A stretch of 63,588 bases of DNA, filler included, from Nemertoderma westbladi (taxonomy: Eukaryota; Animalia; Xenacoelomorpha): the NCBI GenBank assembly GCA_032718475.1. It is 4 parts of 4 records of this genome, joined end to end, with 100 filler letters (N's around TTAATTAATTAA, not from the genome) between each part and the next. Parts side by side here need not be neighbours in the genome. Positions count along the whole stretch, not along the records: positions 1 to 18,456 come from JAUCBJ010002159.1; 3 more parts are not named here. One strand, written 5' to 3'. Of this stretch, positions 6,952-35,987 are shown piece by piece. The position numbers and the translations under genes were made by a program. The notes beneath the pieces were generated by a model. That model saw nothing but the letters and a program-made list of their open reading frames with translations, made no database searches and was not told the DNA's origin. How positions within the stretch are numbered: position 1 is the stretch's first letter; each line of letters begins with the position of its first letter.

Positions 6952-8194
6952 TGTTCTTGAGGATAATCTTGAGTAGCTCGAGTAATAAAAGAAGAATAAA
7001 ACGAAAAACCGTGGCAGCACAGGTTCGATTTGTTATTGATATATCGGGTGAATTTGAGTGGGAGGCCCCCTTTGGGGGTTGTATCCACTAAACGAGATCC
7101 CATGGAACAACATGCATGCATTTCGACAAATGGCTCATATTTTGTGCTATTTCGGAGGTATATTTTTATCTATAACTTGACTTCTCCGGTATCAAATTGA
7201 TTTCTGTAAAGTTGCCACGGTTGATCTCAAATAGCTTGTCGCGATGGCCAATAAATTATATTATTATCACGCGTTTTTTACGTAATATTGGCGATTTTAC
7301 GCATTTGAAACACGTGTTTCACAGAAAATTGGTTACATTTAGCCTTCCATTCAAAAAACGGTCATTGTAAATTAAGGCTATTATCCAAAATTTGATATAA
7401 TATTTAATAGGCTTTTCAAAAAGTAGGCTGTCGTGCACAGCTAACCATGTGTGGAAATGGTATTTTCGCCCAAAATAAAATTTTTGATTACACCTATTTT
7501 TAGGGGAATGCCTGTACAATTCACCCTATTTACTATAGCAAGTCAATATCGGGACGATGCAATGGCTAACGATGCAATATTTTCTTTTAGTTTCAGATAC
7601 CATTCTAAGCCGAATTATGCTTGTTTTGGAAAATTTGGGACAGCCTACGTTGAAAAAAAAAATACGACAAGGCTTCCTTATCCATATAGAAAAGCCTGCG
7701 AAATGATATATGTTTTTGTAAACGAACTTCGTGGCACAAAGCAATTGAAGGAGAAGATATATTTCGTATCTTTTATTACTTTTTCAGATATAGAAAATTA
7801 TGCTGCAATAATTTTTTTTCTGCAGCCTACTTTCATATCTAGAAAATATATTTTTCTTATTTTATTTTATAAACAATCAACCTATTATTGAACAAATATT
7901 GATTTCATATATTATTTTCCTCCTGGAATTCATTGCTAAATACAGGAATTTTGCTTTGAAACCGATAATTGTATGCCTATTGCCTATGCATGTATGTGAT
8001 ATAACAAAACATGAAAAATATTAGCAAAAATCAATAATTTTTACGCTGTTATATCCTGTCTGGCCTCTATATAACAAGAATAAAGAAAAATCTTAACAAA
8101 ACTTTTAATATTCTCGTATATTTTATCATTCATTCTTGAATAATACTGTAGTTTAGCAATTTATTAAATTTATCTTCTTTATCTTCTTATCTTC

Positions 8195-8383
<189 letters not shown>

Positions 8384-8793
8384 TCACCTACTTCTTATGT
8401 ATGTCCTAAACGTGTCCGCGTTTGTCAGGCTGCAGAACAATAGCAGCGGTGAGTCATAGGCAAGGCAAGCCCAGGAGCACGTGCTATCCGAGCGCCTATT
8501 GGACAGGGGGCCGCAATGTGATTGGCCGAGGCAACTGCTAGGCCTCTTGCTACATACATACGGTGCTTGTTGAAAGAAAATAGAATTACATTTCGATACC
8601 GGATTTTGGTGGATCGAAACGTAATTGTTACCTGCAAGTGATTGGCCGTTAGGCAGAGCCAATAAGCAGCCGAGTTTGCAACCAATCCAAAGCGAGTATT
8701 TCTTTCTCGAAAATGTGGTAAAGTGGTGTGGCCTTCTTCCTTCTTCATTCATTCATCCACACCACATTGCATCGTTACTGCTATATTCTCTAA

Positions 8794-9219
<426 letters not shown>

Positions 9220-9692
9220 AGCAATGTGACAGACAGCATCCGCAAGTCCTAATCAAACCCAAACGGCCCTTTTCAGGGCCACCAATCCTAAAACTCGGGT
9301 CGTGACTCGCCTTGTATGTCACACAGATCTGCGTCTGTACGTCGTGTCTGCCTGCTATGCTATGTTATGCATGAATTCAGTGCGCAATATTACATGCAAC
9401 AGGAAATTTCCAAAATGATTAGCGATAAAGGCACACTGACACATATTAATTAATGTATGTAATAGGCTTACTTACCTACATGTTAGTTACACGATATTTA
9501 TTCGTCGTGTCTCTCACTGAGTACTAATTAATTAATTGACACTCTACGATAATAATAATAGTAAGCAATAACAATAACAAGCAAAAATACGTATTGTCGA
9601 TACCGTGGTTTATGAAAGTGTTGGCCCTGAAAAGGGCCGTTTGGGTTTTGGTGGGACTATATAAGACTAAGACAGAATGAGAAATAATGTCT

Positions 9693-10274
9693 CTATTTCT
9701 TGGCAACCTTCTTTTTAGGGGTTGCCTTTTTGGCAGCGGCGGGCTTGGCAGTCTTCTTGGCTGCTGGTTTCTTCACGGAGGGTTTCTTAGCAACAACGGC
9801 CTTCTTAACGGCAGGCTTTTTCGCAGACGATGCTTTCTTCGGTTTGGCGGCGGCGGTCTTCTTGGCCACGGGCTTTTTGGCAGCAGTCTTCTTCTTTGCC
9901 GGGGACTTCTTAGCGGCTGCGGTCTTCTTGGGCTTAGCTGCCGACTTTTTGGGAGCGTCATTGGCGCTGGCGGGCAACTTGAAGGAGCCACTGGCACCGG
10001 TTCCCTTGGTGTGCACTAGCTTACCGCTTGTCACACCAGATCGAAGCTGCCTTTTGATGTGCGAGGTGAGCTTCTCGTCGACCTTGTAGTTGGCCGATAT
10101 GTACTTAACGATGGCTTGACGGGAAGATCCGTTTCGCTCCTTGAGATTCTTGATTGCGGCTTTAATCATGTCGATAACCGGAGGATGTGTCGGAGCAGTC
10201 TTCGGTTTCTTCGCCTTGGCGGCCTTCTTCGGCGACTTGCTGTGCACAGCAGTAGCGGTTGCAACTTCAGTCAT
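9693..10274 (-). CDS. H1: Histone H1, copy 3 (one K>N change; promoter interrupted by LINE)
   Basis: Reads ASANDAPK versus ASAKDAPK in copies 1 and 2. Confidence 0.97.
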
Positions 10275-10584
10275 TGTTCTTGAGGATAATCTTGAGTAGC
10301 TCGAGTAATAAAAGAAGAATAAAACGAAAAACCGTGGCAGCACAGGTTCGATTTGTTATTGATATATCGGGTGAATTTGAGTGGGAGGCCCCCTTTGGGG
10401 GTAACTGAACTGAACTGCTGAAATACGAAAAACTGCTCTTAACTTTCGTGATAATTTTAACTGTAACCGTACCGTAAGTTTGAGTTGGCGCCGGTTCTCC
10501 GGGTTGCCCTTCAAGCCATTACCCCCTCCTTCGACTAAGAAGATCCCCCAAGACTAAGTCAAGGAAAACACACAACCTGTAGGA

Positions 10585-13500
10585 ATGATGTTGACAGCGG
10601 GAGCGGCAAAACTCGCGGCCGGTAAAAGCCACGGATCGGCAAACTCTCCTCTTCATAGAACGAGGCAGTCGATCGCCATCCGAACAAACCGGAGAGAATC
10701 GCTCGGCCTGCAATCGATACCTAAACACAAACCACTGGCAGGCGCAAAGAAGAGAAACGGGATGAAAGAAAATATGCCGCAGAAACGAACATCGACTGAC
10801 GGAATAATTCAAGGAGATATCGGCAGAAACTCGATAGACCTGTCCACTTCAGGTCATTCTGAATCGCCAACTCATCCATCTCCCGTTCCGCACTCGTCAG
10901 ACACAGAAACATCAGAAACGTTCGCCAAACCGGAACCTTCCATCGACATATCGGAACCCGTCCAAACGGAAGCGAGTTCCCTCAAAAAGAGTAAAATTAT
11001 TTTCAAAAAGACAATTGGAGCCAATAATGGTAAAGGTGCAATTACGATAAAGCCTGGATCCTTTGATGGGATTACTAGAGGGGAATTTAACCCCAGTGCC
11101 ATAAATTTGGAGAACTCTGTTAACTTAGATTTCAGTACGACGTTCTCAGTAAGCACACCTTCAGAGAAAATCCCGCACCAGGAACCGGCCGAAATTGGTG
11201 AAAATGTCGAAATAATTGACAACTCTATAACAATAACACACGAAAGGCCAGCCACTAAGGTAGACAGTTGCGAATTATATCCTAACGCGATCGAAAAACT
11301 GGACCCACAGGAACTAATAAATAAGATAAAAAATTGTCTACAAGAAATCACCGATAACCGTCCGGCCAACACCATCCCCCTACCCGCGGCGCTAAAAACA
11401 CTCGAAAATAAAGCCTGGCTCAGTGATGATGTTGTGGATGGATTTATGGGACTAATACAACTCCACTTCCCCCACACAGCGCCTGTACCAAGCCAACTCG
11501 CGGAGCAGCTGAGATCATCGGGGTGTAGCCAACTTTCCGCAATCCAATACGTGGCGACCCGGTATCTCGGTCGCTATCAATCTACAGCACCGACTCTTCT
11601 CTTCTTGCCGGATTGTAATAAAGATCACTTCATCCTTCACGTGGCCGACACCAGAGTACGTACCGTGTACGCAATAGACTCAAACCGAGCGTCGATGCCC
11701 ACGCGAATAACCTTTGCCTTCGCTAATATTCTGAACACAATCGACGAAAATAAACCTTGGAGCAAATATAAAGCAACTGAGAAATGGAAAGTGGGATCAA
11801 AGTATACAACGTTAAGTAAGCAGGGGAACGGCTATGATTGCGGGGTGTATGTCTGTCTGGGCGCCCTAACAGTAGCCCAGGACAAGAATCAGTTACCACC
11901 AATTCACTACGACAGCGCAAAGGCTCGGGGCTGGCTGCAGTCCTGTTTTAAAGACTTTAAACTTGCGAATAATGTGGATGTGGATATCGATTTTGACTAT
12001 ACTCCAGCGACCACCGTCTCTACCGAGGTGAACAATCTCAGCGAACATCGGAATACTGAGGGGAACCCTCCAAACCACAAACTAGCGCTGGGCGAACTTG
12101 ATAATATCTTGCATCTACCTAGGAAAGAAGCTCTCAAAATCTTATCAGATAAATATTCTATGGAGCAAATCTCAAATATTCGGAATGACCTGTTCAATTG
12201 CGTTACTAAATTAACATCACCTCTCCAACAGGTAACTCTACAGCTGCAATCGCGATCCTCTGCAAGCGCCCTGGCAACCGACGTTCTAGAACTGCTACGG
12301 TGTAGACTGAATGGGTTATTGACAGAACCCTGCCGCAAACGTTTGCGTAAGATTGAATCTACGGATAAAGGTATTACATTGGAAGGCCTCAAGAACGATC
12401 TCATAACTGCTGTCTCTGCCCTACAGGCTCGCATGTGTATGATCGAGGCTGAGAACTCCAACCTCAAAGAGCGCATGGGAACTGTGGTAGATGAACTGAG
12501 CATCGAACGCCACCATCGAGTCATGTGGGAGTCTAAATTCAACAAACTCAGTTCGACTAAACCAACAATAGGACATATACTATACGACAATCCCAGCTCA
12601 ACAATCACCACTATAATAGAACCCGTCACAGAAAACCAACCAATGGGCGACTTTATTCTAAACACGCCTCTCTCGCCTCATGGCTCGCCCCAAATAGAAG
12701 AATACTTGATTGTTGACTCAATCAATTCTCCACCAGTTTCACCAGCAGCGCCCCCTGTATCCAAAGACGCGACACAACAATCAAACGCCGATGGCTGGAC
12801 AACTGTAGAACCAAAAAAGAACAAATACACACGAAATTTGGGCGTCGAAACTAAGAGTGACAACCGCGGTCAAAAAAGAGGCACTATAAGAGGGAACGAC
12901 ATTCAACCGAGCAAACCGGTCTCAAACAGAGATCCTCCACAAAGACTGCGCTGCGCAGACTCGAGACGACTTCATTCCCTGTTCATCAGCGGAGTATCAA
13001 GGAATAATAACGAGAATGATGTTCTAGAATACCTGCACCGTAACAAAATTGAGGTACATCGTTCATCATGCAGGTTAAGCCGTGACTCCATTAACATCCG
13101 ACTAACCGTGGATTTAAACGATTCAGAGACACTAAAACAATCCGATTTCTGGCCTGCTGGAATTCGATGTCGCGACTGGGAATATCATCCCAGATATGTG
13201 GAACAAAGAAAACGTCATGAAGATAATCGAGATCACCATAACAACCACGTACAACACCGACGGCATAAAGACCCCCATATTCAACGTGATAATAGCGGAC
13301 AGCCTTCGAGTCAACACGACCGCAACAGCCAACAAGATACCAACGGACAACCCTGGGTGCATCGCAACCTGACCGAACAACTAGACTCCCGCGGACAACG
13401 CTCGAAGGATGGAGACCAGTATGGGGGGCAACGAGATCAGTCTAGGAAACGAGATTATGATGGACAATCCTCGTGGCTGCGCGACCCCAACGAACAACAC

Positions 13501-13638
13501 TCATGGAAACAGGATCGCTACGGACAGCCCTCAGGCCATCGTGACCGCGATGAACAACTATCGTGGAAACGAGATCGCAACGGACAGCCATCATCATATT
13601 CTAATCCTAGAGAGTTCCCGAACCGGTATTGTCTTTAA
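10585..13638 (+). CDS. LINE ORF1: Ulp1/SENP-like C48 cysteine protease, coiled coil and RRM-like domain
   Basis: Protease motifs WLSDDVVDGF, PDCNKDHFIL (His), YAIDS (Asp) and KQGNGYDCGVYVC (Gln, Cys). Heptad region ALQARMCMIEAENSNLKERM. LFISGV...FWPAGIRCRDW resembles the RRM-type C-terminus of LINE ORF1 proteins. Confidence 0.88.
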   Translation: MMLTAGAAKLAAGKSHGSANSPLHRTRQSIAIRTNRRESLGLQSIPKHKPLAGAKKRNGMKENMPQKRTSTDGIIQGDIGRNSIDLSTSGHSESPTHPSPVPHSSDTETSETFAKPEPSIDISEPVQTEASSLKKSKIIFKKTIGANNGKGAITIKPGSFDGITRGEFNPSAINLENSVNLDFSTTFSVSTPSEKIPHQEPAEIGENVEIIDNSITITHERPATKVDSCELYPNAIEKLDPQELINKIKNCLQEITDNRPANTIPLPAALKTLENKAWLSDDVVDGFMGLIQLHFPHTAPVPSQLAEQLRSSGCSQLSAIQYVATRYLGRYQSTAPTLLFLPDCNKDHFILHVADTRVRTVYAIDSNRASMPTRITFAFANILNTIDENKPWSKYKATEKWKVGSKYTTLSKQGNGYDCGVYVCLGALTVAQDKNQLPPIHYDSAKARGWLQSCFKDFKLANNVDVDIDFDYTPATTVSTEVNNLSEHRNTEGNPPNHKLALGELDNILHLPRKEALKILSDKYSMEQISNIRNDLFNCVTKLTSPLQQVTLQLQSRSSASALATDVLELLRCRLNGLLTEPCRKRLRKIESTDKGITLEGLKNDLITAVSALQARMCMIEAENSNLKERMGTVVDELSIERHHRVMWESKFNKLSSTKPTIGHILYDNPSSTITTIIEPVTENQPMGDFILNTPLSPHGSPQIEEYLIVDSINSPPVSPAAPPVSKDATQQSNADGWTTVEPKKNKYTRNLGVETKSDNRGQKRGTIRGNDIQPSKPVSNRDPPQRLRCADSRRLHSLFISGVSRNNNENDVLEYLHRNKIEVHRSSCRLSRDSINIRLTVDLNDSETLKQSDFWPAGIRCRDWEYHPRYVEQRKRHEDNRDHHNNHVQHRRHKDPHIQRDNSGQPSSQHDRNSQQDTNGQPWVHRNLTEQLDSRGQRSKDGDQYGGQRDQSRKRDYDGQSSWLRDPNEQHSWKQDRYGQPSGHRDRDEQLSWKRDRNGQPSSYSNPREFPNRYCL

Positions 13639-16600
13639 CACGTCAAACAACGAGGAGAGAAGTGAAATCGTAGCTGTAAGATGTGGTACACTAAATACAA
13701 ACGGATTTTCAAGCAATACAAACTATATAAATAAACTTCTTGATGAATGTGACTTCCTTGGAATACAGGAACACTGGTTGGACGATCTGGAATGTCAGGC
13801 CAGCCTCTTTCCGCTTGACAATAAATTTGACTGCGTCTACGCTGTCAGTTCTCTGATGGAAAATCCGGATAGAAAACGCGGTGCGGGCGGCGTCGCTTTA
13901 TTCTTTAGGAAGGATTTATTGAGGAATTGGTCTCAGGTAAACGGCGGCGACGACATAGTTGGGGTTATTGCTGACCTACACGATGCCGAGCGGCCGGTTT
14001 TGGTGTTATCATGTTATGCTCCGGATCAATCAAAGGACACCGCCTTGTATGACAGTTTCCTGGGTCGCCTACGCTCCCTCATAACTCAATATTCAGGGTG
14101 CCTTCCGATAGTCCTAATGGACTGCAATGCCGATGTCGGTAACTTACAAGGTGCGAGGGGACACCTATCAAACGAAAAACCAAATTCTAGAGGCATTCAT
14201 CTGAACTCATTCCTAAACACCATCGAGTTATGCGCGGCAGACACTCACACTCAGTTCAGTGGGCCAGTGGTAACTTTCCGGGGACAGGGTAGAGATACGT
14301 CCTCGTATATCGACCACATACTGACGTCAACCACCGGGCTCGATCTCATCAACACTGGAATAGTATACGACGACGATCCAGCCAATAACTTCTCCGACCA
14401 CGTTCCAGTAACTGCAATTTTTCAGCTCACTTCAAATAACGGCGACGCTGATAGTGATACACACATTTCAAAGCACAAACGACGTCAATTGAAGTTCAAT
14501 TGGGCGAAGGCAACGGATGAGGATAAAGATAAATATAAGGAGGTAGTTGACTTCGCAGTCGAAAAGTCTGCCCTAGAGATCAATGACCTTCGAGCCAAAA
14601 ATGGTAGCATCGAGGACATAAACAACTGCATGGACAAACTACAATGTGCAGTGATTGCGGCCGCAACAACATACATCCCGACGCTGAAACAAAGACGCAG
14701 TACGAAAAATATACGAATACGTTCCAAACTGCTACAATCAAGTGCGAAGATTACACGGCAGCTGTATAAACTGTGGGAGGAGGCGGGCCATGAGCCCACC
14801 GACCAACTGGGTTCGGAGTTCAAAGAGTCGAAACGGCGCACTCGGAGGATTAAAAATTATTTATCAAAGAACTTTGTTCGCAATTCCACAAACAAATGGG
14901 CCAGAAACATCAGTTCAAACCCTAGAAACTTCTGGGCCAACGTTAATCGCGCGAAGACTACTAGTGCCCCGCCAACGATGGAGTCTCCCCTGCGAGACCA
15001 CTACGCCACTAAGTTCAGTGGAGGCGGCGGAGTGAGTGAAACTCTGAACGCCGAACTGCGGGAAGCCTGTTCGGAAACGGTTCTCCCTCAAATCTCGTCG
15101 TTAGCTGTGAGACGAGCCGTGGTCTCACTATCGACTGGGAAATCCCCTGACTTCGCCTCATTAAGTGTGGAACATTTACTGCACATGAACCCAGAACCGA
15201 TCTGTGAATATCTCGCCACTTTAATCAATGCCTGTTTTAATCTAAAGCAAGTACCTGAATTGTTTGGAAATTCGGTCGTATCAAGTCTTTACAAAGGAAA
15301 GCGAAGAGACATATACAACACTGGATCCTATAGACCTATAGCTTCCATAAGTATCTGGGCGAAGGTGTTCGAACGTATCGTTCTCACCGACTTCCTCATC
15401 AATATCAAACTCCACGATAACCAAACTGCATATCGGGACAGGATCGGCTGTGATATTGCCATAGCGACAATTCTAGAATGTATGGAGAACAATCTATCCA
15501 GCAAATCGACACTGTTCGTATGTCAGCTGGACATCGAGTCGGCGTTCGACACGGTAGACTACGACGCACTCGGTCGCAAGATGTTGGAATTCGTCAACCC
15601 CCATGTGGTCGCGACCGTGCTGAACTATTACACCGTCAGTACGATATTCCTTAAGTTTGCCGGTTTAGTAGACAGCGACGGATTCCAAGTCTCCCGCGGA
15701 GTTAAACAGGGGTCGCTCCTATCGCCTCTCCTGTTCAATCTATATACCCGGAGTATTATTGATGACCTTCAGGACACAAACATCGGATACTCAATTAACT
15801 CGATCTGGTTGGGAGCAATCTCATATGCTGACGATTTTCTGTTGATGGCTAACAGCGCCAAAGACATTGAGCAGCTGTACACTACGTTTAGCTCAAGCGC
15901 CAAAAACATAACGCTGTCGGTGGAAAAGAGTAAAATAAACTGGTCGGTTTTTTCGAACCAACGATCTCTACATCTCCCAACTTTCATCACATTAGAAGGC
16001 CAACTGATCCCCGCCAAGAACTCGTGGACCTTTCTGGGCTACAACTTAGCCCAGGCTATGACCAACCCTCTGGGCGCGTCGGTGCAGAAAATCGCTGCTC
16101 TGGCCCACATGTTCCAGTCGAAGGGTTGGTCCACGAGGTGGCTCCCGGCGTCGGCCGTGTCTAACCTGTGGCGATCTATTGCGTTACCGGCTATTGTCTA
16201 CTCGCTAAAATTAAACATTGGAGCCCTCAACCAAAGCGATGTGAACACCCTCGATATCGCCTATAGAAACGCGCTCCGCAGTCTACTCAACGTTAGCTGC
16301 TACATCGGGAATGCCACACTCTATCATCTGTCGCAGCTCAGGCCGATCTCGCAGGAGGCTCTTCGACTCGCGGTGGGCACACTGACGAGGTACAACGAGT
16401 GCCGCAACAAGGCACTTCATAGTGCATTTATCAGCCTCGCAGTATCGAGTCTTTCACCTGGTGGAACGAAGGGTGGCCGAGGTATCCTTAGTGCGTATCA
16501 CAGCGCTGCTCTCGAACATCCATTACCGCGACTCGAGTCTATACTAATGTACCGGTACGCGAAGGAATCCATTGTTAACCGGATGGTCTTGGGCGCACCG

Positions 16601-16711
16601 ACTTCCGCAGATACTGCGAACGCCGGCTTCATTGCGGCCTGCTTCGACTTACAATCCCTGACGTTGGTGGAAAAACGAAACCGAATAAAGGATTATTTTG
16701 CAATAATTTAG
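13409..16711 (+). CDS. LINE ORF2: AP-endonuclease plus reverse transcriptase
   Basis: APE motifs TLNTNG, GIQEHW, GGVALF, DCNAD, IDHIL and SDHVPV. RT motifs YRPIA, LDIESAFDTV, GVKQGSLLSPLLFN, YADD and FLGY. No internal stops; the true start codon is uncertain. Confidence 0.96.
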   Translation: METSMGGNEISLGNEIMMDNPRGCATPTNNTHGNRIATDSPQAIVTAMNNYRGNEIATDSHHHILILESSRTGIVFNTSNNEERSEIVAVRCGTLNTNGFSSNTNYINKLLDECDFLGIQEHWLDDLECQASLFPLDNKFDCVYAVSSLMENPDRKRGAGGVALFFRKDLLRNWSQVNGGDDIVGVIADLHDAERPVLVLSCYAPDQSKDTALYDSFLGRLRSLITQYSGCLPIVLMDCNADVGNLQGARGHLSNEKPNSRGIHLNSFLNTIELCAADTHTQFSGPVVTFRGQGRDTSSYIDHILTSTTGLDLINTGIVYDDDPANNFSDHVPVTAIFQLTSNNGDADSDTHISKHKRRQLKFNWAKATDEDKDKYKEVVDFAVEKSALEINDLRAKNGSIEDINNCMDKLQCAVIAAATTYIPTLKQRRSTKNIRIRSKLLQSSAKITRQLYKLWEEAGHEPTDQLGSEFKESKRRTRRIKNYLSKNFVRNSTNKWARNISSNPRNFWANVNRAKTTSAPPTMESPLRDHYATKFSGGGGVSETLNAELREACSETVLPQISSLAVRRAVVSLSTGKSPDFASLSVEHLLHMNPEPICEYLATLINACFNLKQVPELFGNSVVSSLYKGKRRDIYNTGSYRPIASISIWAKVFERIVLTDFLINIKLHDNQTAYRDRIGCDIAIATILECMENNLSSKSTLFVCQLDIESAFDTVDYDALGRKMLEFVNPHVVATVLNYYTVSTIFLKFAGLVDSDGFQVSRGVKQGSLLSPLLFNLYTRSIIDDLQDTNIGYSINSIWLGAISYADDFLLMANSAKDIEQLYTTFSSSAKNITLSVEKSKINWSVFSNQRSLHLPTFITLEGQLIPAKNSWTFLGYNLAQAMTNPLGASVQKIAALAHMFQSKGWSTRWLPASAVSNLWRSIALPAIVYSLKLNIGALNQSDVNTLDIAYRNALRSLLNVSCYIGNATLYHLSQLRPISQEALRLAVGTLTRYNECRNKALHSAFISLAVSSLSPGGTKGGRGILSAYHSAALEHPLPRLESILMYRYAKESIVNRMVLGAPTSADTANAGFIAACFDLQSLTLVEKRNRIKDYFAII

Positions 16712-18059
16712 TCGTATTTATTTTATTTGCTTTATCAGATATATTTTTAGTCAGAACATACTCGGAAAATTTAATTCTTTAATCCAAATAACTTAATTTG
16801 ATTCAATTGTGTGCCATTCTTGCTATCTGGAGTACATTTTTATCTAGTCAGTTTTTAGATTCAATACCAATACCAAATTGGAGGTCACCAGAGGTCACAA
16901 CTGTCATTATGACCTTTTAAGAATCTGGGATCTTATTTTTATCAAGTAATTCAATCAAGAGGCGAACCTCTTTTTACTTCATGAAGTACACGTGTTATGT
17001 CATTATTTATCACATATTAACTGTTGTATATTTATGTAATTGTGTTCAGTTGCTGTCTTAATGATTTTATTGTCGGCTGGTCCGAATTAAACAAATGAAA
17101 TGAAATGAAATGTATCCACTAAACGAGATCCCATGGAACAACATGCATGCATTTCGACAAATGGCTCATATTTTGTGCTATTTCGGAGGTATATTTTTAT
17201 CTATAACTTGACTTCTCCTGTATCAAATTGATTTCTGTAAAGTTGCCACGGTTGATCTCAAATAGCTTGTCGCGATGGCCAATAAATTATATTATTATCA
17301 CGCGTTTTTTGCGTAATATTGGCGATTTTACGCATTTGAAACACGTGTTTCACAGAAAATTGGTTACATTTAGCCTTCCATTCAAAAAACGGTCATTGTA
17401 AATTAAGGCTATTATCCCAAATTTGATATAATATTTAATAGGCTTTTCAAAAAGTAGGCTGTCGTGCACAGCTAACCATTTGTGGAAATGGTATTTTCGC
17501 CCAAAATAAAATTTTTGATTACACCTATTTTTAGGGGAATGCCTGTACAATTCACCCTATTTACTATAGCAAGTCAATATCGGGACGATGCAATGGCTAA
17601 CGATGCAATATTTTCTTTTAGTTTCAGATACCATTCTAAGCCGAATTATGCTTGTTTTGGAAAATTTGGGACAGCCTACGTTGAAAAAAAATACGATAAG
17701 GCTTCCTTATCCATATAGAAAAGCCTGCGAAATGATATATGTTTTTGTAAACGAACTTCGTGGCACAAAGCAATTGAAGGAGAAAATATATTTCGTATCT
17801 TTTATTACTTTTTCAGATATAGAAAATTATGCTGCAATAATTTTTTTTCTACAGCCTACTTTCATATCTAGAAAATATATTTTTCTTATTTTATTTTATA
17901 AACAATCAACCTATTATTGAACAAATATTGATTTCATACATTATTTTCCTCCTGGAATTCATTGCTAAATACAGGAATTTTGCTTTGAAACCGATAATTG
18001 TATGCCTATTGCCTATGCATGTATGTGATATAACAAAACATGAAAAATATTAACAAAAA

Positions 18060-18456
18060 TCAATAATTTTTACGCTGTTATATCCTGTCTGGCCTCTATA
18101 TAACAAGAATAAAGAAAAATCTTAACAAAACTTTTAATATTCTCGTATATTTTATCATTCATTCTTGAATAATACTGTAGTTTAGCAATTTATTAAATTT
18201 ATCTTCTTACGCAATAATTATTGTTGTTTTACCATATCTGGAATCTATAAAACAAGAATAAAAAAAATCTTTGCAAAACTTTTACTATTCTCGTATAATT
18301 TTAACATTCATTCTTGAATAATACTGTAGTTTAGCAATTTATTAAATTTATCTTCTTACGCAATAATTATTGTTGTTTTACCATATCTGGAATCTATAAA
18401 ACAAGAATAAAAAAAATCTTTGCAAAACTTTTACTATTCTCGTATAATTTTAACTT
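18060..18456. repeat. AT-rich tandem satellite, unit about 149 bp, running into the gap
   Basis: TTAGCAATTTATTAAATTTATCTTCTTACGC recurs at 18182 and 18331; about 2.5 copies visible. Confidence 0.85.
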
Positions 18457-21851: not shown

Positions 21852-23089
21852 TGTAAAAGCCTTTGCTGAATTGCCCCGTTATTTTTATTATCTTTTACAT
21901 TAAAATACTCTGTAGTTGATTTAATAAGTGTAAGAGACCGTATTATTGCTGTATCGGTGTTTTTAGAGGATCTAAGACCTATTTCCTCCGTATGTGTACT
22001 GTGAAAGGCATATTTTATGATTCTATGGCAATTCGTGACGCAAAGGGGTGATAGCTACTCTTGAACAGTAGTTACTATGACTACGGTTAACAGCTGACAT
22101 TCATACGTGTTGATTTCCTTTGTTCTACGGCGTCTCTCAGTTCAGTCAGCCAATTAGAGCGTTTTTGTGGCTCCTTGTACAGAAAATTTCCGAGAAATGA
22201 CGCAATGCCTATGTGCAGTGTTTACATTCAGTCCTGAGCCAAAGAAAGAACGGCTTGGAAGTATTTTGTGCTTTACTGTTTTTAGTCTTACACTAGTAGG
22301 TTTAATTATAAAGGGCATATATCCTTTAACCTACCTGACTCATGGAATCACTGCTGACTGATCATACATGCTGACTGCTGAAACATTGCAAACTCGTAAC
22401 AATCAATGTTCAGTTGTTGTTTTATACTGCTATTTACTGTCAGTTCTTCATAATATGGTTGATGAATTATTATATTTGGAATAACGATAAATAACCCCGA
22501 AACCCAATATTCTTGATATACCGAAGGTAAGAGAGAAAGGTTACCAATAACGATTGTGACTTATGTTAAAGTGGTTTGAAGTGAATCCAATGTTATTTGA
22601 TAGACCCTACATGATTCAGTCTGTGTTCCTTTTATATGTGACTAAAATCAGTGAAGATTGGCAGATTAGTGTGCAGTATTGTGCAGCATTGTGTATGAGT
22701 GAGTCTGTTAAAGAAGCAATTCCTAAAGAATGCGCCATATATGTGAATTATAATTAAGCCATATCGTTGTGAGTAGTTTAAGTCATAACTCTGTTTATAT
22801 AGATAAAGCGCCACGTCCTAAAGGAACTGTTAATATTCCCGAAGGTGAATAATATTGTCAGAGATTATATAATACTGTCAGTCGAATAATACATTAGGCT
22901 TACATAGCAATAAAATTAAACCGTCGAACCCAATCTCCCGGGAATCTCCAGCGGGTGAATGGTCGCGCACGGATTGGTTTCGACTAGTGTAGTGAATCAA
23001 ATACTTGTCATAGACTAAAAACAGATTTAATATCTAGAAGACATCTTAATTTGGTGGGTTAAACTGCCAAAGGTCTGAAAGCGCGAACA
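21852..23089 (+). mobile_element. LTR (TG...CA), probable 3' LTR of a BEL/Pao-like element whose internal part is 18557-21851
   Basis: Starts TGTAAAAGC and ends GCGCGAACA. Homologous along its length to the solo LTR at 49698-50799. Preceded by a purine-rich PPT-like tract (TGGGAGCGG). Cuts the RT C-terminus of the second LINE at 23090. Confidence 0.75.
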
Positions 23090-25909
23090 CAGGGTAGTGC
23101 TTCGTTGTCCATCCATTCCTATGGAATGTGTCCGCAAGTGCAGCTATTGATTGTATTATGTCAGATACATAAATGTTATTGTGATCCAGTTTAATCCCAC
23201 GAATAGTGACCCAAGGAATGTGAGGGATGGAGATGTGGCATGAAGATATCCATTTATAGAAATCATGAGCGGTGGACTGTCGTTTTTCCGGTTGGTGTGA
23301 GATTCCTTGAAAATCCAGTTTACTTTTGATGTCTCCAATGCAAGGTTGAGATTCGTGAGTTCAGTTTGTATATGACTGGCCATTTGCTCAATTTCATTGC
23401 TGGACGTTCCCATTAACAGTATGTCATCCGCATAAGAAAGTGTACCCATAATTAGATGAAAAATACGACACCCTTTACTGTCTGGCCCGCCATCATGAAG
23501 TTGTGTAAGAATACCATTGGTGTAGAAATTGAATAATACGGGCGATATTATAGATCCCTGTTTAACACCATTATGCATTGCGAATCCATTCGTGTCCACC
23601 ATGCCATTGATGTTGATAAACACCATACTTGCTTTGTAATAAACTACCAGCAGTCGACATATATAGGGATTAATATGTTCTGATAATTTTTTAAATAGAG
23701 GATAGTGATTAACAGAGTCGAATGCTGCTGCTATATCCATTTGGCAGACGTAAACCCCGGAGCCTCTACTGGGATAAAATTCTATATGTTCTAGAATAGC
23801 GCTGAGTATAACATCGGAACCGATACGTTTTATCTTATTATTAGGTATAATCTCCAAGAAATATTCCTTTGCAACGATACCTTCCAGAACTTTTGCAAAT
23901 TAACAAATGGATGCGATGGGACGGTAAGATGATGGGTTCATTGAATCTTTGCCTTTGCCTTTGTATAGGCATTTTACAACTGTCTCCCCAAAGAAAGTTG
24001 GTACTATGCCTAGGCGAATGGATTCATTGTAAAGTCTGGCTAAGTGTTTGCATACTGTATCCTTATCTGTGTAGATCAAGTGTTCGACTGTCAAGGTACT
24101 TTTATCCGGTGATTTACCTTTGCCCAGGAGTAAGATAACGTCTTCCACCGTCTTTTCTGAGATGAGTGGGTGCTCAGTCCCTTCACATTTTGCATTTATA
24201 TCATCTATTAATGTTTCAAGATCTCCAGTTTCACCAGAATCTCTCTGAAATTGCTGACGCAGATGGGTAGTAAGTGGGACGCGCATTGATTCTGAAGTTT
24301 CTACGGTTTGTTTATTCTTAAGGTGATTCCATAAGGAGCGAGGTTTGGCAGTATGGTTTTGAATTATCCCGTGAATATGATTAGATAGCCTGTTCTTGGT
24401 TAACCAGTTCCTAAGACGCCTCACTGCACGTTTTGAATCCTTGAACAAATGGTTGTAGCGATCTGATTGACATTTACCACGCTCACACCAGATGCCATAT
24501 AGAGTTCTGGTGATTTTGGACTTTTCATGCAATTGGGTACTCCTAATTCTATAATTACGAGTTCGTTTTCTGATGGAACTCTGGGGAACGTGTGCACAGG
24601 CAGCTTCGTAAAATACACTCTATAATGATTCCCCATACCACTCCAAATCAACTTTGGTCCAACTGTAATGGTTACCTTCTATTACGTCATCTAGGTGGTT
24701 GTGATCGGCAATGGTCGCTTGCTTGTAACTTTCTAATTGCTCTTCGCTACATTTATGCCAGTTGAATCGACGAATACGATGGTGTGAAGAGTTTAGTTTA
24801 TTAACCGCACTGTCCGGAGTTGGTCTTATGGTAACTTTCAGTGTGGCGGATACAGGTACATGATCGGATTGGTTTGATACGTTATCCATATCGTAAATTC
24901 TACCATTCATTATCAAGTCTAACCCAGTGTCCGTAGTTAGTATATGGTCTATGTATGTACGCCCTCACCCATAGAATGTGCAGCATGGGCCGTCAAAGTT
25001 ATCAAGTGTATCAGCTGCCTCCAGAGTGTGGTCAGTTAGGAAGTCGTTCAGTGAAATTCCTCTGGCAGTTGCCACTTTTCTACTGTACCTTTTACCTTGG
25101 AGCGGCCCAACATCAGCATTCCCATCCATTAAGATTAGGGGTATCGTGGTATGATGAGAAGTAACCACATTACTTAATCTTCCAAGAAAGTCATTGTAGA
25201 CACTGGGGGGCTTGCTGGAGTCCGGTGCATACGCTGAAATAATTAGGAGTTGTTTATGAAATCCATCCATTGTGGCAAGCACACCTATGACGTCATTTCC
25301 AGATTCAACCGGTACAACGGAACTGAATATACCACGCTTAATAAGTATACATACGCCTCCCCGCGTGCTGTTAGTAACTTGTGACGTTGTTCCCGGTAGG
25401 TATTTACATATATAATCACCACCAAAGGTCCCTTCTAAAATTTCTTTGCATTCAACTGCATCCAGCCAGTGTTCCTGTATAGCAAAAATGTCAATGTTGT
25501 TTCTTAATAAACTACTAATATAATCTAAATTAGCAATTAATCCCCTAGTGTTGAAACTACAGCACTTTAATGTGGAAAAATCAGTGGAAATATATTTTTT
25601 ATTGGTATTGTTTGAATCCGTGGGATAGGGTCGGCCGCTATTAAGGTTGGGGATGTAATTCGTGCTATTGTTATTATCCAAACTTGATATGTTAATGATA
25701 TTATCCCGTATTATGTCGTTGTTCACATTATAAAACTCTGTATCAGCAGCACCCGCTGTTGTCCCACCACAATTATTAAAGGTGATTTCGCCCTCCCCGG
25801 CTGGACGTATAATGTTTGGTGTGGAATCCTGACACTGGGCTATTGTTATTGTTTGAGTTATATGGGTAGGTGTGGTTGTATGTCTCTCTGCGGTCCTTCC
25901 ATAGCGCAC
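23090..25909 (-). pseudogene. Fragmented ORF2 (APE + RT) of LINE copy 2
   Basis: Four ORF pieces (24965-25909, 24620-24916, 23900-24532, 23156-23857). A terminal piece SIAALADTFHRNGWTTKHYP matches KIAALAHMFQSKGWSTRWLP in element 1. Confidence 0.92.
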
Positions 25910-27378
25910 AGGTTATCCCTTCCGTCCATAAATCATTTCCAAGTAGTATGGAAGCGTTGCCGCTTTCCATTATTAATTTCATATTCTTACTATTGTTGTG
26001 GATCCTTGTGGTTATCCGGTAAACTTTTGCACCCCTTTCCTCAATGTAGGAAACAACCTCATCCTCTGTGTGCCCCCGATGTATCCCATTTACAAAGTAC
26101 ACAGTCCTTTGCCGTGTGTGTTGGTCTGCTGCCCTGAGTTTGATATTGTGATTGTCGTGTTCACCTCGGTGTTTATTGTGCACATGATTCGTTGATGCAG
26201 AAACACCCCGGGCAGCATCCTGATTCTCCTTCAGTAAGCAATCACTTGATTCATGGAATGGCATCGGTTGTATGTTATCATGGTTGCTGTGACTTGTCAA
26301 TCCATTCAGTACTTCATACCGATTATGTACCGGAATACTATTGTTAATATACTGTTTACGGGGGGCTGGGGAGGAGATTCGATGGCGGCGTGAGTGATGG
26401 GTCCTGCTCTCCTTGCTGAAGGACATAGAGGAAGCTGCATGTAACGGTAAACTTGTGCTTTCCGAGTCTACACCACTGACTGGGTGATTTTGGTAGGGTT
26501 GGGTTCTGTCTTTGTTGGCTGCATTGGCGATGGAAAGGTTTGGTGTCCCAATCGTTTTGTCATCCCCACTACAAGAGGCAGAGTCAACAATTATCAGGTT
26601 CTCTAGATCTTCATTCATGTCATCAGGGATATACAAATGTTCCAACTCCGTATTGGTAGAGACGGCTTCGACATTGCAAGTTTGTGGAAGTTGGTAGGAA
26701 GTTCTATCAGGAATATTGGATTGTGTGTTAAACTTATTAAATTTGTGTTCTAATATCATCCTTATGCGTCTTTCATGGCCTAATTCTTCTTTAAGATTGT
26801 TGAAATCTTGTTTCAGAGTGTCATACTGTGTTTCATTCCTACACATACGGGTTTGAAGAACCGCTATTGTGTTGATGATGTCCTGTCGTAGTCTTTCCAA
26901 TGAGATAGTTGAGTCCTCAATGCTTGTGTCTTTCTTGAGGCGGCGCTTACAGCTGTCCGTGAAGCAGTTGTCTTCTTTACTTCTATAGAGTTCATATATG
27001 TCCATGGCCATCTCTTTATCAGATGCTCTAGATCGTAATTGAAGTGTAGCGCAGTTGATAGGAGTCATTAGGTATTTCACGTCTGTAAATAATTGTTCCC
27101 TCAACAAGATTCGTTGGTCTATTGGAAGTTTAGTAATTAAGCGAATTGCATCATGGCGAGGATGTTGGACAATTTGATGCAGGGGGGACCCATCCATCAA
27201 TTTGTTTAATACTGACCAGTGATTATTCTCAGATGAGTCATCTTTGTTGTTCAGGGTGCTCACACTAGGTGTATCTATAATAGGCCTTTGCAATGGGGCC
27301 ACGTTTGAAATTCGTGCGGTATCTATTTTCACTTCTGAGACGCTCTTTTCTATCCAGTTACGCAACTGAGTGGAGTCA

Positions 27379-30205
27379 GGGTAGGTGTAAAACGCGGATC
27401 CGGATCCGGATTCAGGATCCGGATACGGATCAGGACCCGGATTGGCGAGTGTAAAAGGCGGATCCGGATTTACATACAATCCGTAACTGAGTGTAATATG
27501 CGGATTCTGAAATACGCAATCCGTATTGCAGTGTAAAACGCGGATTCATATATTTTGTGAATCCGGAATGGAGTGTAAAATACGGATTTACGTTAATTAC
27601 CAAGTTTTGTTGGATCCGGAATGGAGTGTAAAATACGGATTTTCGTTAATTACCAAGTTTTATTGGATCCGGAATGGAGTGTAAAACACGGATTTATGTT
27701 AATTACCAAGTTTTATTGGATCCGGAATGGAGTGTAAAACACGGATATTCGTTAATTACCAAGTTTTGTTGGATCCGGAAAGGAGTGTAAAACACGAATT
27801 TTCGTTAATTACCAAGTTTTGTTGGATCCGGAATGGAGTTTAAAACACGGATTTTCGTTAATTACCAAGTTTTGTTGGATCCGGAATGGAGTGTAAAATA
27901 CGGATTTTCGTTAATTACCAAGTTTTGTTGGATCCGGAATGGAGTGTAAAACACGGATTTTTGTTAATTACCAAGTTTTGTTGGATCCGGAAAGGAGTGT
28001 AAAACACGGATTTTCGTTAATTATTAAGTTTTGTTGGATCCGGAATGGAGTGTAAAACACGGATTTTCGTTAATTACCAAGTTTTGTTGGATCCGGAATG
28101 GAGTGTAAAACACGGATTTACGTTAATTATCAAGTTTATTGGATCCGGAATGGAGTGTAAAACACGGATTTATGTTAATTACCAAGTTTTATTGGATCCG
28201 GAATGGAGTGTAAAACACGGATTTATGTTAATTACCAAGTTTTATTGGATCCGGAATGGAGTGTAAAACACGGATTTTCGTTAATTACCAAGTTTTGTTG
28301 GATCCGGAATGGAGTGTAAAACACGGCTTTACGTTGATTACCAAGTTTTAATGGATCCGGGAAGGGGTGTAATACGCGGATTCAATTTATTTACCAAGTG
28401 TTACTAGATCCGGGAAGGGGTGTAAAACGCGGATTGATTCAGGTTAATTACAAAGTGTTACTGGATCCGGGAAGGGATGTAAAATGCGGATTTACGTTAA
28501 TTACTGAGTTTGTTAATGAGGGACACAACTATTAATGAGGGACACACATTAATGAGGGACACAAACATTAATGGGGGACACCTTAATAGTTAATAGACAC
28601 CTTAATAATTTGTCTATGTCTAGGGGCCACACATAAGCTTAATCCGGCTCTGGGGGACACCTTAATAGGGGTCAATGCTTCCCAATGAATTATTAATAAG
28701 GGCGGTGGTGATGCTTGGCCGTCAGACATTATTAGATATTGATTAGCTGAAAAACTATACTACCGTGGGAACGTGACCTCTCTGGTAGAGCGGCTCTGTA
28801 GACAATTGTAAGGTAGGAATACTGTCCTGTTCCCTGATTGGCTTATCCATCCCAACCTCCCTTACAAACAAGAATCACTGTTCTGCCTAGCTGGCGGTAG
28901 TTTGTACTGCATCATAGCGTACTCTATTTAAGGCCTTGCAAGCGTGCTGCCTTCCTAATTTATGGAGGCTGAACTGTTCAGTATAATTTCTTATTTAATT
29001 TCTTATTAAACATGGATGACAGTGATGACTTTGTAAAGGTTCCATTTACGGGATTCGTTATTCCGAGTCCAACCAATGATACAGCCATTGTTGAGCCGCT
29101 TGAACTCACTACGCAAACATCGTGCACCCCGAGACCGGAGAAGAAAAAAACCAGGAAAGTCAGCAAGCCAAGAAAAGTTACTAAAGAACAATAAACATTG
29201 CACTAATTAATAATTGTAACTAGATGAGGGTCTGGGTCTTTATTGCATATGCGTTTTACAAATTGTTCATTAAAACTTACTAATTAACTTGAATCCGCGT
29301 TTTACACCCCTTCCCGGATCCAATAAAACTTGGTAATTAACATAAATCCGTGTTTTACACTCCGTTCCGGATCCAATAAAACTTGGTAATTAACGTAAAT
29401 CCGTGTTTTACACTCCATTCCGGATCCAATAAAACTTGGTAATTAACGTAAATCCGTGTTTTACACTCCATTCCGGATCCAATAAAACTTGGTAATTAAC
29501 GTAAATCCGTATTTTACACTCCATTCCGGATCCAATAAAACTTGGTAATTAACGTAAATCCGTGTTTTACACTCCATTCCGGATCCAATAAAACTTGATA
29601 ATTAACGTAAATCCTTGTTTTACACTCCATTCCGGATCCAATAAAACTTAGTAATTAACGTAAATCCGCGTTTTACACCCCTTCCCGGATCCAATAAAAC
29701 TTGGTAATTAACTAGAATCCGCGTTTTACACCCCTTCCCGGATCCAATAAAACATGGTAATTAACTTGAATCCGCGTTTTACACTCCATTCCGGATCCAA
29801 TAAAACTTGATAATTAACGTAAATCCGTGTTTTACACTCCATTCCGGATCCAATAAAACCTAGTAATTAACGTAAATCCGCGTTTTACACCCCTTCCCGG
29901 ATCCAATAAAACTTGGTAATTAACTAGAATCCGTATTTTACACCCAATCCCGGATTCAGTAGAAAAATGAATCCGCGTTTTACACTCCGTTCAGGATTTA
30001 GCCTAAAACATGAATCCGCGCTTTACACTCCGTTCCGGATCTGAAAAAAAGGCCAATCCGCATTTTACACTCGGTTCCGGATTCGGTAAATTTAGCAGTG
30101 CGCGGATCCGCAGATTACACCCTAAAAATGTAAATTCAGTCGACTTCCATAGGGACAATGTTAAATGATAGAATCCGGATCCGGATCCGCGTTTTACTCT
30201 GACCC
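27379..30205. mobile_element. Non-autonomous foldback DNA transposon (Mutator/FB-like) with a 9-bp TSD
   Basis: TSD GTGGAGTCA at 27370-27378 and 30206-30214. TIRs of about 35 bp, GGGTAGGTGTAAAACGCGGATCCGGATCCGGATTC, and an imperfect reverse complement. Inverted arrays of a 53-bp unit at about 27560-28505 and 29277-29960. Confidence 0.92.
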
Positions 30206-30214
30206 GTGGAGTCA

Positions 30215-30890
30215 GTATGTTCCGGGCCAATAATTTTGGTGTCAGTTGCAAGGGCAACAGCATATAAGCAAACAAAGCCACCACAGTCGAAATGATTTTT
30301 TTAATTGGGGAATGATCGTTTATACTTCATATCCACCTTCCAATCAGCCGGAATTCCACGAACCTTATTTATTAAATTTAATATATTACAGATAGATTCT
30401 GAAATGACGTGGTCAGATTTAACTGTGTCTAAGCTGTTGAGAGAATATACCCTTTTCTCCTTCTGATCTGCCACATGCAAAATAAAATGTTTCCTACGAC
30501 AGTCGGGGAAAACCATAAGTTGTATACTGGTAGGGTCACACCTGTTTGTAATATACGATATGGCGCTCGCCGTGTCAAATGTGTCCTGCCGCAGCTTTCG
30601 GCAGAGGGTTGAATCTATACAACCTATGGAATCAGTTTGCCGCTGCAAAATGGACAGAAACGAGTCGACAATTAATGTTGAGAGGAAATTCTCATCTTCG
30701 AAATAGTCCCAGTCGGGATCGCTGGGCTTCAGTAGAACTAAGCCTTGAGCATCTGGTAACATGGTTGCTGCTAACACCACTGCTTCCTCATTGAAGCCTT
30801 CGCTAACATCTGGAAATACATGAACCGATTCTTTTAATTCCATACCAATGTAACTATTTGGATTACGAATTGGCAGAGCGTTGTTAAGAG
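30215..30890 (-). pseudogene. Ulp1-like protease domain of LINE copy 2 ORF1
   Basis: FLSTLIVDSF...FPDCRRKHFILHVAD...SLNS...PN*KNHFDCGGFVC. A TAA at 30301-30303 sits where element 1 has the oxyanion Gln. Confidence 0.85.
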
Positions 30891-31809
30891 TGTTGTAATG
30901 ATGACGTCTGAGTCACTGCCTGGCACATGGATTGTTTTTGCACAAACATTGTTGGGGCAGAAATAAGGTGCTGTTGCCGATAATACTGAGTGTGGAGAGA
31001 CGTTGGCGGAGTGGGTTACCGGTGGTGTCGTTGATTGAGGTGTAGGTGTAGATTGAGTATTGAGTGACGTTTGTGAGTGGGTTGCTGGTGGGGAGATTGT
31101 TTGAGATGTGGGTGTTGGTTGTAACTGGGTCATGGGTGTTGGTTGAGAAGCAGGTTTAGGCATAGGCCTCGTAAGTAAATGAGTTGCTGGTATGGTCTTC
31201 TGTTGGGACGAGGGTGTGATTTGAGATAATGGTGTTTCTAACGGCATTGGTTGATTTCTTTTAGAAACTTTATTTTTGTGCTTTGTAGCCTTCTTTTTTT
31301 GCTTTGTTGCCTTTATAGGCCTCTCTTGTGAAGTTTGGGAGCGACCATTGCTTCTCGTGTGAGGCCTATGTGTGTGTGTTTTATCGTTGAGTGTGGGTGA
31401 GTGTGCTGGATGAGTGTCCTCGGGTATTGTTGGGCTATAGTCATTGTCCATTGTCAGGTCTGAATTAGATGAGGAGACAGTGTGGGATGATGTAGTGGTG
31501 TGTAAGTCTAGCGTCTTAGTGGATGTGTAGACTAACTTACAAGAGCTGTATACAGGTACATCAGCATTATGTACACCACTATGTATTGGTAAAGTGTTAA
31601 CAACAACCCCCGTAGTTATACAGTTATTTTTCTCACCAATATCCGATGTAGTGGAAGCTGTTACCATAGTTGTCGTAGCAGTTTTGCGACTGCAGGCAAG
31701 ATTGCCATCAATGCCTCCCCAGCCCAGGTCACTGGCTGTACGGATTCCCGAACCTAACTGAGCCGGGGTTGCCATTACTAAATGTAGATTCGAAGGTACT
31801 CGGTATGAA

Positions 31810-34730: not shown

Positions 34731-35987
34731 GCTGGCCATGTTGGTTGGTGGGCCTATTCCAGAGCCATTCAGATGACAGCCGGTTCTCTTTTTTTGTTGA
34801 TATCAACCATACATAAAATATGTTCAAACAAAAATAATGCTTATTATTTTTACTTTTATTATTTTAGTTTACTTAACTGTGGTAATTACATTGCAAGTCT
34901 TACAATTCATGTTACTATTCATGTCATTTTTTGAGAAAGTTTGACTGGCCCATTTGTTTGAAAATTGATTTATTAAATTAAATGAACGGGAAAAGGGCCA
35001 CCTTTACTATCATAAAGAATGAGATGATTTACATTAGGGCCACAAATATACATCATTTACAATGGCCCATTTGCATCCAAATTGATCTTACAAATAAACT
35101 GAACTGTAAGAATAAAGAGAAATAAGATAGGGCCATTGAGTTATATAGGTACACTATACCTACATATCTCACTATATAGATATACAAGTTGGCCCTTTCG
35201 CTCGTTTTTTCATCTTTATGTATGTATATTAAAATGGTATATGTAGGAACATATATACACAAGATATGTAGATATACTAATTCCCTTTTTACTTCCATTC
35301 TGTGTTATATAGGTACATAATACCCTTCATTTCAAAGATACATATCTATGGCCCTTTAGGCCGAACGTACATATATATATATATATATATCTAAATAATG
35401 CAGCCAAATCTCATCGTCATATATGTCTTTATTCAATTTCCATTTTCTCGAATTTAGCTGAATATTTTTTTCTAATTTTTCTAATAGACGTAGAGAAAGG
35501 AATTTTCTACGAGGCCAAAACATATTTGGATCATAAACATTAAATCATTCAAAGAAAATTGGAATATATATATCGCCATATATATATATATATATCCCTT
35601 ATATATATAATATACTAGATGTATAACTTTTTTTGTGGTTCTTTGGCTACAAATATACAATATATGTATAATGGCACCCTATGCTGCTCGCATTCTATAT
35701 TGTGTTTAGAAAAACCACTTTCAGTTAAAATTACATTTCCGTGATAATTGGGTTAATGTACTGTACCTAAAAGCGAAATACATTACCGTATAATACTGCA
35801 GGTATCGATGCCATACAGTATTACTTGTTACATGAAGTACTGTATATAGGTAGGGTGAGTGAGGGAGACTTGAACCCCAAAAGTTATAATAGCTCTAAAG
35901 AGCAGATAAATAAATTTGTCAATGCCGTTTTAACTTTTTCACATTACATTTATGATTGCTATCACTATGTCAGAGTTTGAGAACTTC

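Follow-up and report, generated by a model that had tools for sequence, protein, structure and literature searches.

A C48 (Ulp1/SENP-like) protease domain in ORF1 of an intact APE-type LINE from Nemertoderma westbladi

Overall organization of the locus

The DNA analysed here, termed the window, is a stretch of 63,588 nt from Nemertoderma westbladi (GCA_032718475.1) composed of four joined records, the first of which, JAUCBJ010002159.1, supplies positions 1–18,456. The window contains an intact long interspersed nuclear element (LINE) of the apurinic/apyrimidinic endonuclease (APE) type, designated element A, and a decayed copy of a sister family, designated element B (Table 1). The first open reading frame (ORF1) of element A encodes a protease domain of the C48 family, with a predicted CE fold, whose active site is complete. 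Copy number and flanks beyond the window were judged from public DNA contigs only (four runs).

Element A displays the hallmarks of an APE-type retrotransposon of the class without long terminal repeats (non-LTR): a discrete insertion, a 3′ simple-repeat tail, an empty site elsewhere and several copies. ORF1 is open over its full length. ORF2 matches Exo_endo_phos (E 2e-8) and RVT_1 (E 1e-27), contains APE and reverse transcriptase (RT) domains and has no stop across its 1108 codons. These features agree with the preliminary description, made from the sequence alone, of an intact APE-type LINE with ORF1 at 10585–13638.

Table 1. Positions of elements A and B, their parts and the interrupted histone unit in the window
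Feature	Position	Strand	Evidence or remark
Tandem H3-H1 unit of 3323 bp, third copy, interrupted by element A	8384..18208	.	Comparison of repeat units
Element A, full-length APE/RT LINE (probably Proto2-like), 6708 bp, no target-site duplication	10403..17110	+	Flanks rejoin an uninterrupted histone unit exactly; empty-site joint 10402>17111 in 4/4 runs
ORF1 of A, 1017 aa, open throughout	10585..13638	+	Basic N-terminus, then a linker rich in Ser/Thr/Pro, C48, the helical block, the coiled coil, the RRM-like domain and a charged tail
C48 (Ulp1/SENP-like) protease domain of A, aa about 270–460	11392..11964	+	Pfam, phmmer, structure model
Helical block common to A and B	12082..12378	+	Helix and coil about 35–36% identical to B
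Predicted coiled coil	12379..12564	+	Hydrophobic a/d positions 12/18 in A, 11/18 in B
RRM-like domain	12937..13194	+	Region covered by 16/48 database matches
ORF2 of A, 1108 codons between stops, 1024 of them after the ORF1 stop	13385..16711	+	APE endonuclease about 13670–14425, RT about 15320–16048
Only Gly-Gly of A ORF1, aa 947–948; possible self-cleavage site, weak lead	13423..13428	+	Tail placement not above chance (P 0.47)
ORF1 terminus CTT-TAA, candidate site of a +1 frameshift into ORF2	13633..13638	+	Hexamer and +1 frame also in B
3′ untranslated region, closed by a short tail of 5-bp repeats; in other copies (AAT)n follows 17096	16712..17110	+	
Element B, decayed sister LINE copy with the same ORF1 layout; in-frame stops in ORF2	23036..34802	-	tblastn from A
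ORF1 core of B (helical block, coil, RRM-like), CTT-TAA end at 25781–25776	25776..27377	-	
High-copy foldback-like DNA element, inverted 53-bp tandem arms, 10-bp target duplication	27380..30205	.	Splits B ORF1 between C48 and core
C48 domain of B, with His and Cys, Asn in place of Asp and, in the window copy only, a stop in place of Gln	30208..30702	-	
Repeat of 81 bp (27 aa), 36 copies, in N-terminal B ORF1	31811..34731	-	Inside a 1322-codon open frame

The C48 domain of ORF1

The catalytic residues of the domain are W278 (11416), H348 (11626), D365 (11677), Q413 (11821) and C419 (11839), and all five, as initially described, are in frame. The His-Asp spacing of 17 and the Gln-Cys spacing of 6 are identical to those of Ulp1 in the phmmer alignment. 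None of the 34 classified ORF1 variants, among the variants listed in public contigs, affects the His, Asp, Gln, Cys or first Trp.

The profile and structure comparisons suggested in the preliminary description both identify the region as C48. Pfam Peptidase_C48 (PF02902) matches the whole ORF1 with an E-value of 4.1e-4 and 20.7 bits, which is exactly the cut-off, and the C48 domain alone with 2.9e-5 and 24.4 bits. A phmmer search of the PDB yields 13 matches at E up to 10, every one of them a Ulp1 or SENP protein, with yeast Ulp1 on top (E 7.2e-10). A profile of A and B retrieves the same 13 matches, and NEDD8 or ubiquitin proteases are absent from them in both searches (0/13). The Atlas search also places C48 clusters on top (0.96; 28/30 matches). 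An exhaustive database search with ORF1 gives 48 matches, which comprise 31 C48 proteins, 16 proteins matching the region of the RNA recognition motif (RRM)-like domain, and one C1q coil artefact (P0016).

A structural model of the domain predicted from 31 aligned rows has a mean predicted local distance difference test (pLDDT) value of 85.7; a single-sequence fold without the alignment gave 35.7. The model can be superimposed on SENP5, SENP3, SENP1, SENP2 and Ulp1 with Z-scores of 21–24 (top 23.9) and a root mean square deviation of 2.1–2.6 over 185–190 residues. Foldseek gives template modelling (TM) scores of 0.7–0.79. The predicted similarity is lower to NEDP1 (Z 18–19) and to viral and bacterial CE enzymes (Z 12–16). 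As the remaining rows behind the model are host-like C48 proteins, this ranking is not independent evidence on the substrate. In a tree of 29 of the 31 C48 matches, with the two-domain proteins P0020 and P0060 left out, A and B are joined (99) on a long stem and no donor is resolved.

A sister family with the same ORF1 layout

Element B is related to element A along both reading frames, with tblastn identities of 36% for ORF2 (E 2e-163), 28% for the ORF1 core (E 2e-26) and 33% for the C48 domain (E 3e-20). The C48 domain precedes the coiled coil and the RRM-like domain in both elements, which confirms the order first proposed for A, the RRM call itself being weak. Pfam finds no match in the piece of the B C48 domain before the stop, nor in the 27-aa repeat region of B ORF1.

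The ORF1 of B is interrupted in the window. At the position of the stop, public contigs of all three covering runs (X1, X2 and X3) carry Gln, and in the X1 and X3 contigs (one sample) the C48 domain runs directly into the core, so the damage to B ORF1 is private to the window copy. In addition, 16 extra letters in B are listed for X1, X3 and X5 and would bring the repeat-rich N-terminal frame into phase with the C48 domain.

The C48 domains of A and B are 35% identical, with an alignment score of 221 compared with at most 27 for shuffled sequences. Identity elsewhere is about 35–36% in the helix and coil and 43% in the endonuclease and RT. At four-fold degenerate sites 23/92 positions are identical, which equals chance, and silent sites are thus saturated. 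Since 35% identity has been kept despite this saturation, the C48 domain represents an old, selected part of the lineage. The comparison indicates that the domain is kept by selection in two distant families. Both A and B retain the Gln and the Asp-Cys-Gly (DCG) motif.

The element that splits B ORF1 is foldback- or Mutator-like. The depth of its end in public runs is several hundred times that of family B, and it occurs with many different flanks.

Other domains of ORF1

The N-terminus of A ORF1 is basic, with a Lys plus Arg fraction of 0.19 in residues 1–80. Downstream of the C48 domain, the helical block leads into the predicted coiled coil; matches of the B coil to leucine-zipper and coil models are below the cut-off. 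A likeness of the helical block to P0023, noticed by eye, failed on comparison (probability 0.1).

The RRM-like domain is a weak assignment. Its database matches, used as a profile, retrieve RRMs of heterogeneous nuclear ribonucleoproteins (hnRNPs) at E 4e-4, and Pfam RRM_DEAH11 matches the region at E 0.046. L1 ORF1p is not found among the 27 PDB matches of this profile (0/27).

The ORF1/ORF2 junction

ORF1 of both elements ends in the hexamer CTT-TAA, and ORF2 follows in the +1 frame. The two junctions are identical in all six positions of the hexamer, and the flanking 30 bases match at 7/30 and 5/30 positions, as expected by chance. In the window, 9 of 1105 stop-free runs of at least 30 codons are closed by CTT-TAA, and two of these nine are the ORF1s of A and B. 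In B, the ORF2 frame lacks Met over an interval that begins 45 codons ahead of the ORF1 stop and ends 169 codons past it. In A, the first Met of the ORF2 frame after the ORF1 stop is codon 73, inside the endonuclease. The overlap of 84 codons between ORF1 and ORF2 is unremarkable, as other +1 runs in ORF1 reach 78 and 70 codons. No frameshift stimulator was found at CUU_UAA.

Known +1 sites include those in which a P-site CUU is followed by a slow codon, as in CUU_AGG_C of Ty1, or by a stop, as in CUU_UGA of release factor 2 (PMC5009743, excerpt). The candidate site resembles these in its P-site CUU, its slow or stop codon and the +1 position of the next frame. It differs in being CUU_UAA and in belonging to an animal LINE.

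Classification of element A

The nearest ORF2 relatives in the protein collection share 22–25% identity (15 matches). The number of residues between the conserved Lys and Gln after the YRPI motif, counted by eye, was compared with the labelled alignment of PMC10294476 (supplement file 23). This RT spacing is 20 in A, 20 in all 11 Proto2 rows seen whole and 24 in all 15 RTEX rows; it is also 20 in two non-Proto2 rows, NeSL-1_TV and PERERE-9. By eye, the RT motifs of A are close to those of Proto2-1_HM and Proto2-2_HM. The RT spacing suggests that element A is probably Proto2-like.

The RT phylogeny called for in the preliminary description places A and B together on a long branch between a group of nine rows with a spacing of 20 and a group of six rows with spacings of 22–24. 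This tree is unrooted, and its 15 relatives are unlabelled. Pfam finds no restriction-like endonuclease in A. With two ORFs and an N-terminal APE, the element does not have the NeSL/Utopia layout.

Insertion site and copies of element A

Element A interrupts a histone unit at a point 128 bp upstream of H1, whose start codon lies at 10274 on the minus strand. The left and right flanks are 99.95% and 99.0% identical to the second histone unit, respectively, and this near-identity fits a recent insertion. The histone-unit site without the insertion is present in all four public runs. The sequence of element A is covered in all bins in three runs from two samples, and both near-identical and decayed copies are present in public contigs. 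One X3 contig appears to start at the 5′ end of element A with 54 letters that do not derive from the histone unit. Specificity of insertion for the histone cluster was considered and is unsupported, as B lies outside the cluster and one X3 contig has an apparently non-histone flank.

A short 5-bp repeat opens element A (10403–10417) and a similar one closes it (17097–17110). The element and its target share a 2-bp microhomology at the 3′ junction. Element A has an observed/expected CpG ratio of 1.12, compared with 0.71 for the decayed B and 0.86 for 35001–63588, and differences in other copies of element A in public contigs are mostly C>T and G>A. The CpG figures and the excess of these changes would fit methylation of older copies.

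Putative role of the protease

The C48 domain in ORF1 may be an isopeptidase for SUMO or a related ubiquitin-like tag, which it would remove while tethered to the endonuclease-RT by the predicted +1 shift. We regard this tentatively as having slightly less than an even chance. The domain would be catalytically active and would act on host or element proteins near the element RNA and the insertion site. The RRM-like domain would bind the element's own RNA and the coil would multimerise the ORF1 protein (ORF1p). The RRM-like domain would thereby carry the enzyme to element transcripts, where SUMO-dependent silencing by PIWI-interacting RNAs (piRNAs) acts; in Drosophila, piRNA silencing depends on SUMO (10.1101/533091, excerpt). 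A +1 frameshift at CTT-TAA would fuse ORF1 to ORF2 and take the protease to the integration site. DNA transposons without polyproteins fuse Ulp1 or OTU to the transposase (PMC2836005, excerpt). A host tag at the integration step is favoured because Ulp1 and OTU domains occur on these polyprotein-free transposases and the NeSL/Utopia protease lies in the RT protein.

Several observations weigh against removal of SUMO by a frameshift-tethered enzyme. The predicted substrate surface departs from that of host SUMO proteases in a comparison with 29 host-like C48 rows. The Trp that follows the catalytic His in 29/29 rows is Phe in A and B, the Phe at aa 304 (19/29 rows) is replaced by Gln/Thr, and an Arg-Trp pair (17/29 and 20/29 rows) is missing from both. 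Residues 304–305 and 322–323 are off the host consensus, as is the segment linking the first strand to the second. In element B, moreover, Phe replaces the first Trp, Thr an invariant Asp (29/29) and Asn the triad Asp, and no variant is listed at these divergent B positions in public contigs. The equivalent residues of Ulp1 presumably contact SUMO, an assumption for which a literature search on Ulp1 interface residues gave no confirming paper. Conserved Trp residues and variable regions, including that between the first two strands, are described as substrate determinants, and enzymes of the CE fold are shown to change over to ubiquitin, to NEDD8 or to acetyl transfer (PMC4961225, excerpt). 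SUMO-interacting motifs are not enriched in ORF1. At the junction, five in-frame ATGs lie upstream of the ORF1 stop in A, and AUG-independent initiation is the favoured, probable model for ORF2 of mammalian L1 (PMC5009743, excerpt). The case for a frameshift rests on two families and was spotted after the fact; on the sequence comparison, it appears evenly balanced.

The junction common to A and B, which like element B itself went unnoticed in the preliminary description, also opens a reading in which the protease serves the element itself. The +1 shift would make an ORF1-ORF2 fusion, which the C48 domain would cut in cis after the Gly-Gly of the tail, freeing the endonuclease-RT. The shared hexamer and +1 frame fit this scheme, as do the Met-free ORF2 frame around the B junction and the position of the first downstream Met of A inside the endonuclease. 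The window copy of B is decayed, however, and may have lost an ATG. ASFV (African swine fever virus) pS273R and poxvirus I7L share the fold predicted for the domain (Z 12–14) and cut their own polyproteins after Gly-Gly, and the diverged SUMO surfaces would suit a new substrate. The sole Gly-Gly of A ORF1 and that of the B core both lie in the disordered tail, but their placement is not above chance (P 0.47 for the A tail, 0.05 for the B tail and 0.12 for upstream depletion). Moreover, six Gly-Gly pairs are present in the N-terminal repeat region of B and several in both ORF2s. Self-processing is judged somewhat unlikely. A broader version, in which the LINE lineage reinvented the Gag-Pro-Pol logic of retroviruses, with a CUU-UAA shift and a captured SUMO protease that both matures the polyprotein and strips SUMO from the ribonucleoprotein (RNP) or target chromatin, is an unlikely scenario.

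Alternatively, the enzyme might act purely against transcriptional silencing, the purpose proposed in the preliminary description, with free ORF1p in the nucleus deSUMOylating proteins of the piRNA/SetDB1 pathway and the junction hexamer arising by chance. The basic N-terminus could serve as a nuclear signal, the closest relatives are SENP and Ulp1 proteins, and piRNA silencing needs SUMO (10.1101/533091, excerpt). We consider this distinctly unlikely, given that no DNA-binding domain was found in ORF1, that the SUMO surfaces have diverged and that the common CTT-TAA junction would be left unexplained. Slightly less probable again is a different chemistry or substrate, with the domain being a deubiquitinase or deneddylase that keeps the RNP from being degraded, a protein that binds tags without catalysis, or an acetyltransferase like YopJ. 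The YopJ family is likewise marked by loss of the conserved Trp, small changes switch CE-fold specificity (PMC4961225, excerpt), and OTU and Ulp1 are interchangeable alternatives in Ginger1 (PMC2836005, excerpt). On the other hand, the Gln and DCG motif are retained in A and B, the Z-scores of NEDP1 lie below those of the SENPs in a comparison biased by the alignment, and NEDP1 is not among the sequence matches. That the domain is a neutral passenger or an assembly artefact is barely credible. No relative of the architecture was found outside Nemertoderma westbladi in the collections searched, but the domain is in frame in A, has a homolog at the same place in B with 35% identity against saturated silent sites, and belongs to an element carried by contigs of two samples.

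Comparison with known systems

Ulp1 domains are already known in transposons, and the literature and database searches gave no earlier case of their placement in ORF1 of an APE LINE. The preliminary description had mentioned Ulp1 in DNA transposons and in NeSL, and published excerpts support both (PMC2836005 and PMC4640811). NeSL and Utopia-1_TSP are likewise non-LTR elements carrying Ulp1, there in the RT protein (PMC4640811, excerpt). They are nematode elements with a single ORF and a restriction-like endonuclease, whereas the protease described here belongs to ORF1 of a two-ORF APE element together with a coil and an RRM-like domain. Ulp1 (PF02902) or OTU is also carried by Ginger1 and Mutator, and a role in transposition or repair has been proposed for it there (PMC2836005, excerpt). 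These are DNA transposons in which the protease is fused to the transposase, with no RNP or ORF1.

Yeast Ulp1 and the human SENP1, SENP2, SENP3 and SENP5 domains share the predicted fold and the catalytic order with the C48 domain of A. They differ in having 16–22% identity in structural alignments, His-Trp in place of His-Phe, and a substrate-binding region from which that of A has diverged. A Josephin-related cysteine protease described in the literature (PMC9977147, excerpt) presumably belongs to Dualen LINEs, which combine APE with a restriction-like endonuclease. Dualen elements resemble element A as APE-encoding non-LTR elements with a protease of the ubiquitin system, and differ in the Josephin-related fold, the dual endonucleases and the algal host. 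Proto2 LINEs of the RTE superfamily share with A the two ORFs, APE and RT, and the 20-residue RT spacing; a protease is unmentioned in the main text of PMC10294476 (0 occurrences).

LINE ORF1 proteins of types I–V include a coiled coil and RRM core (L1-like type II) and an enzyme kept active in ORF1 (esterase, type IV) (PMC4120745 and PMC3905857, excerpts). The enzyme here is instead a C48 protease and stands ahead of the coil. The words 'protease', 'peptidase', 'Ulp', 'SUMO' and 'C48' are each absent from the main text of PMC4120745, a paper limited to the Jockey superfamily. A C48 domain in ORF1 of an APE LINE was likewise not found in a full-text search of mostly open-access literature (Repbase and Dfam lie outside its scope), in PMC11203168 and its supplement, or in excerpts of PMC3905857, PMC6431247, PMC5718144 and PMC9977147. 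Transposon capture of Ulp1 as such has been published; within the scope of these searches, the earlier suggestion of an undescribed system would apply to the architecture.

Sequence searches for outside relatives of the architecture gave none among 7993 candidates of a word-indexed search (ORF1 residues 255–660), none (0/4244) with the A and B profile against longer proteins, and none in two metagenome scans, one viral scan and the Atlas (aa 255–880). This negative is weak because the collections searched are poor in animal DNA. None of the 48 matches of the exhaustive search combines C48 and RRM in one protein.

Ulp1-like domains recur in many transposons with a role so far only proposed (PMC2836005, excerpt). 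Such a role becomes testable with a single Cys-to-Ala change in a LINE that is intact, recently inserted and equipped with an undamaged C48 domain in ORF1. The domain would also be the second enzyme class in LINE ORF1 proteins, after the esterase. If the frameshift is true, it would provide a new route for ORF2 translation, which is called unresolved for LINEs (PMC5009743, excerpt), and would link the protease with the integration machinery, an arrangement known from NeSL and Ginger1.

Other features of the window

The histone cluster that hosts element A spans 346–18208 and consists of a single H2A, a single whole H4 and then the 3323-bp unit in three copies at 99–100% identity. The unit is composed of H3, H1 and a 185-bp stub of the 5′ part of H4, and its depth in public runs is very high.

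Further LINE ORF2-like fragments are located at 36271–36669, 53911–54417, 58481–59146 and 60935–61408. RVT_1 matches 53914–54417 and tblastn supports 58532–59083; the fragments at 36271–36669 and 60935–61408 were recognized by eye. A 23-bp satellite (40 copies) at 47253–48160 and a 5-bp microsatellite (132 copies) at 50904–51562 both give long spurious ORFs. Two host genes are present, encoding keratinocyte-associated protein 2 at 38039–38461 on the plus strand (E 2e-46) and a member of the Tctex-1 family at 59886–60353 on the minus strand (E 5e-25).

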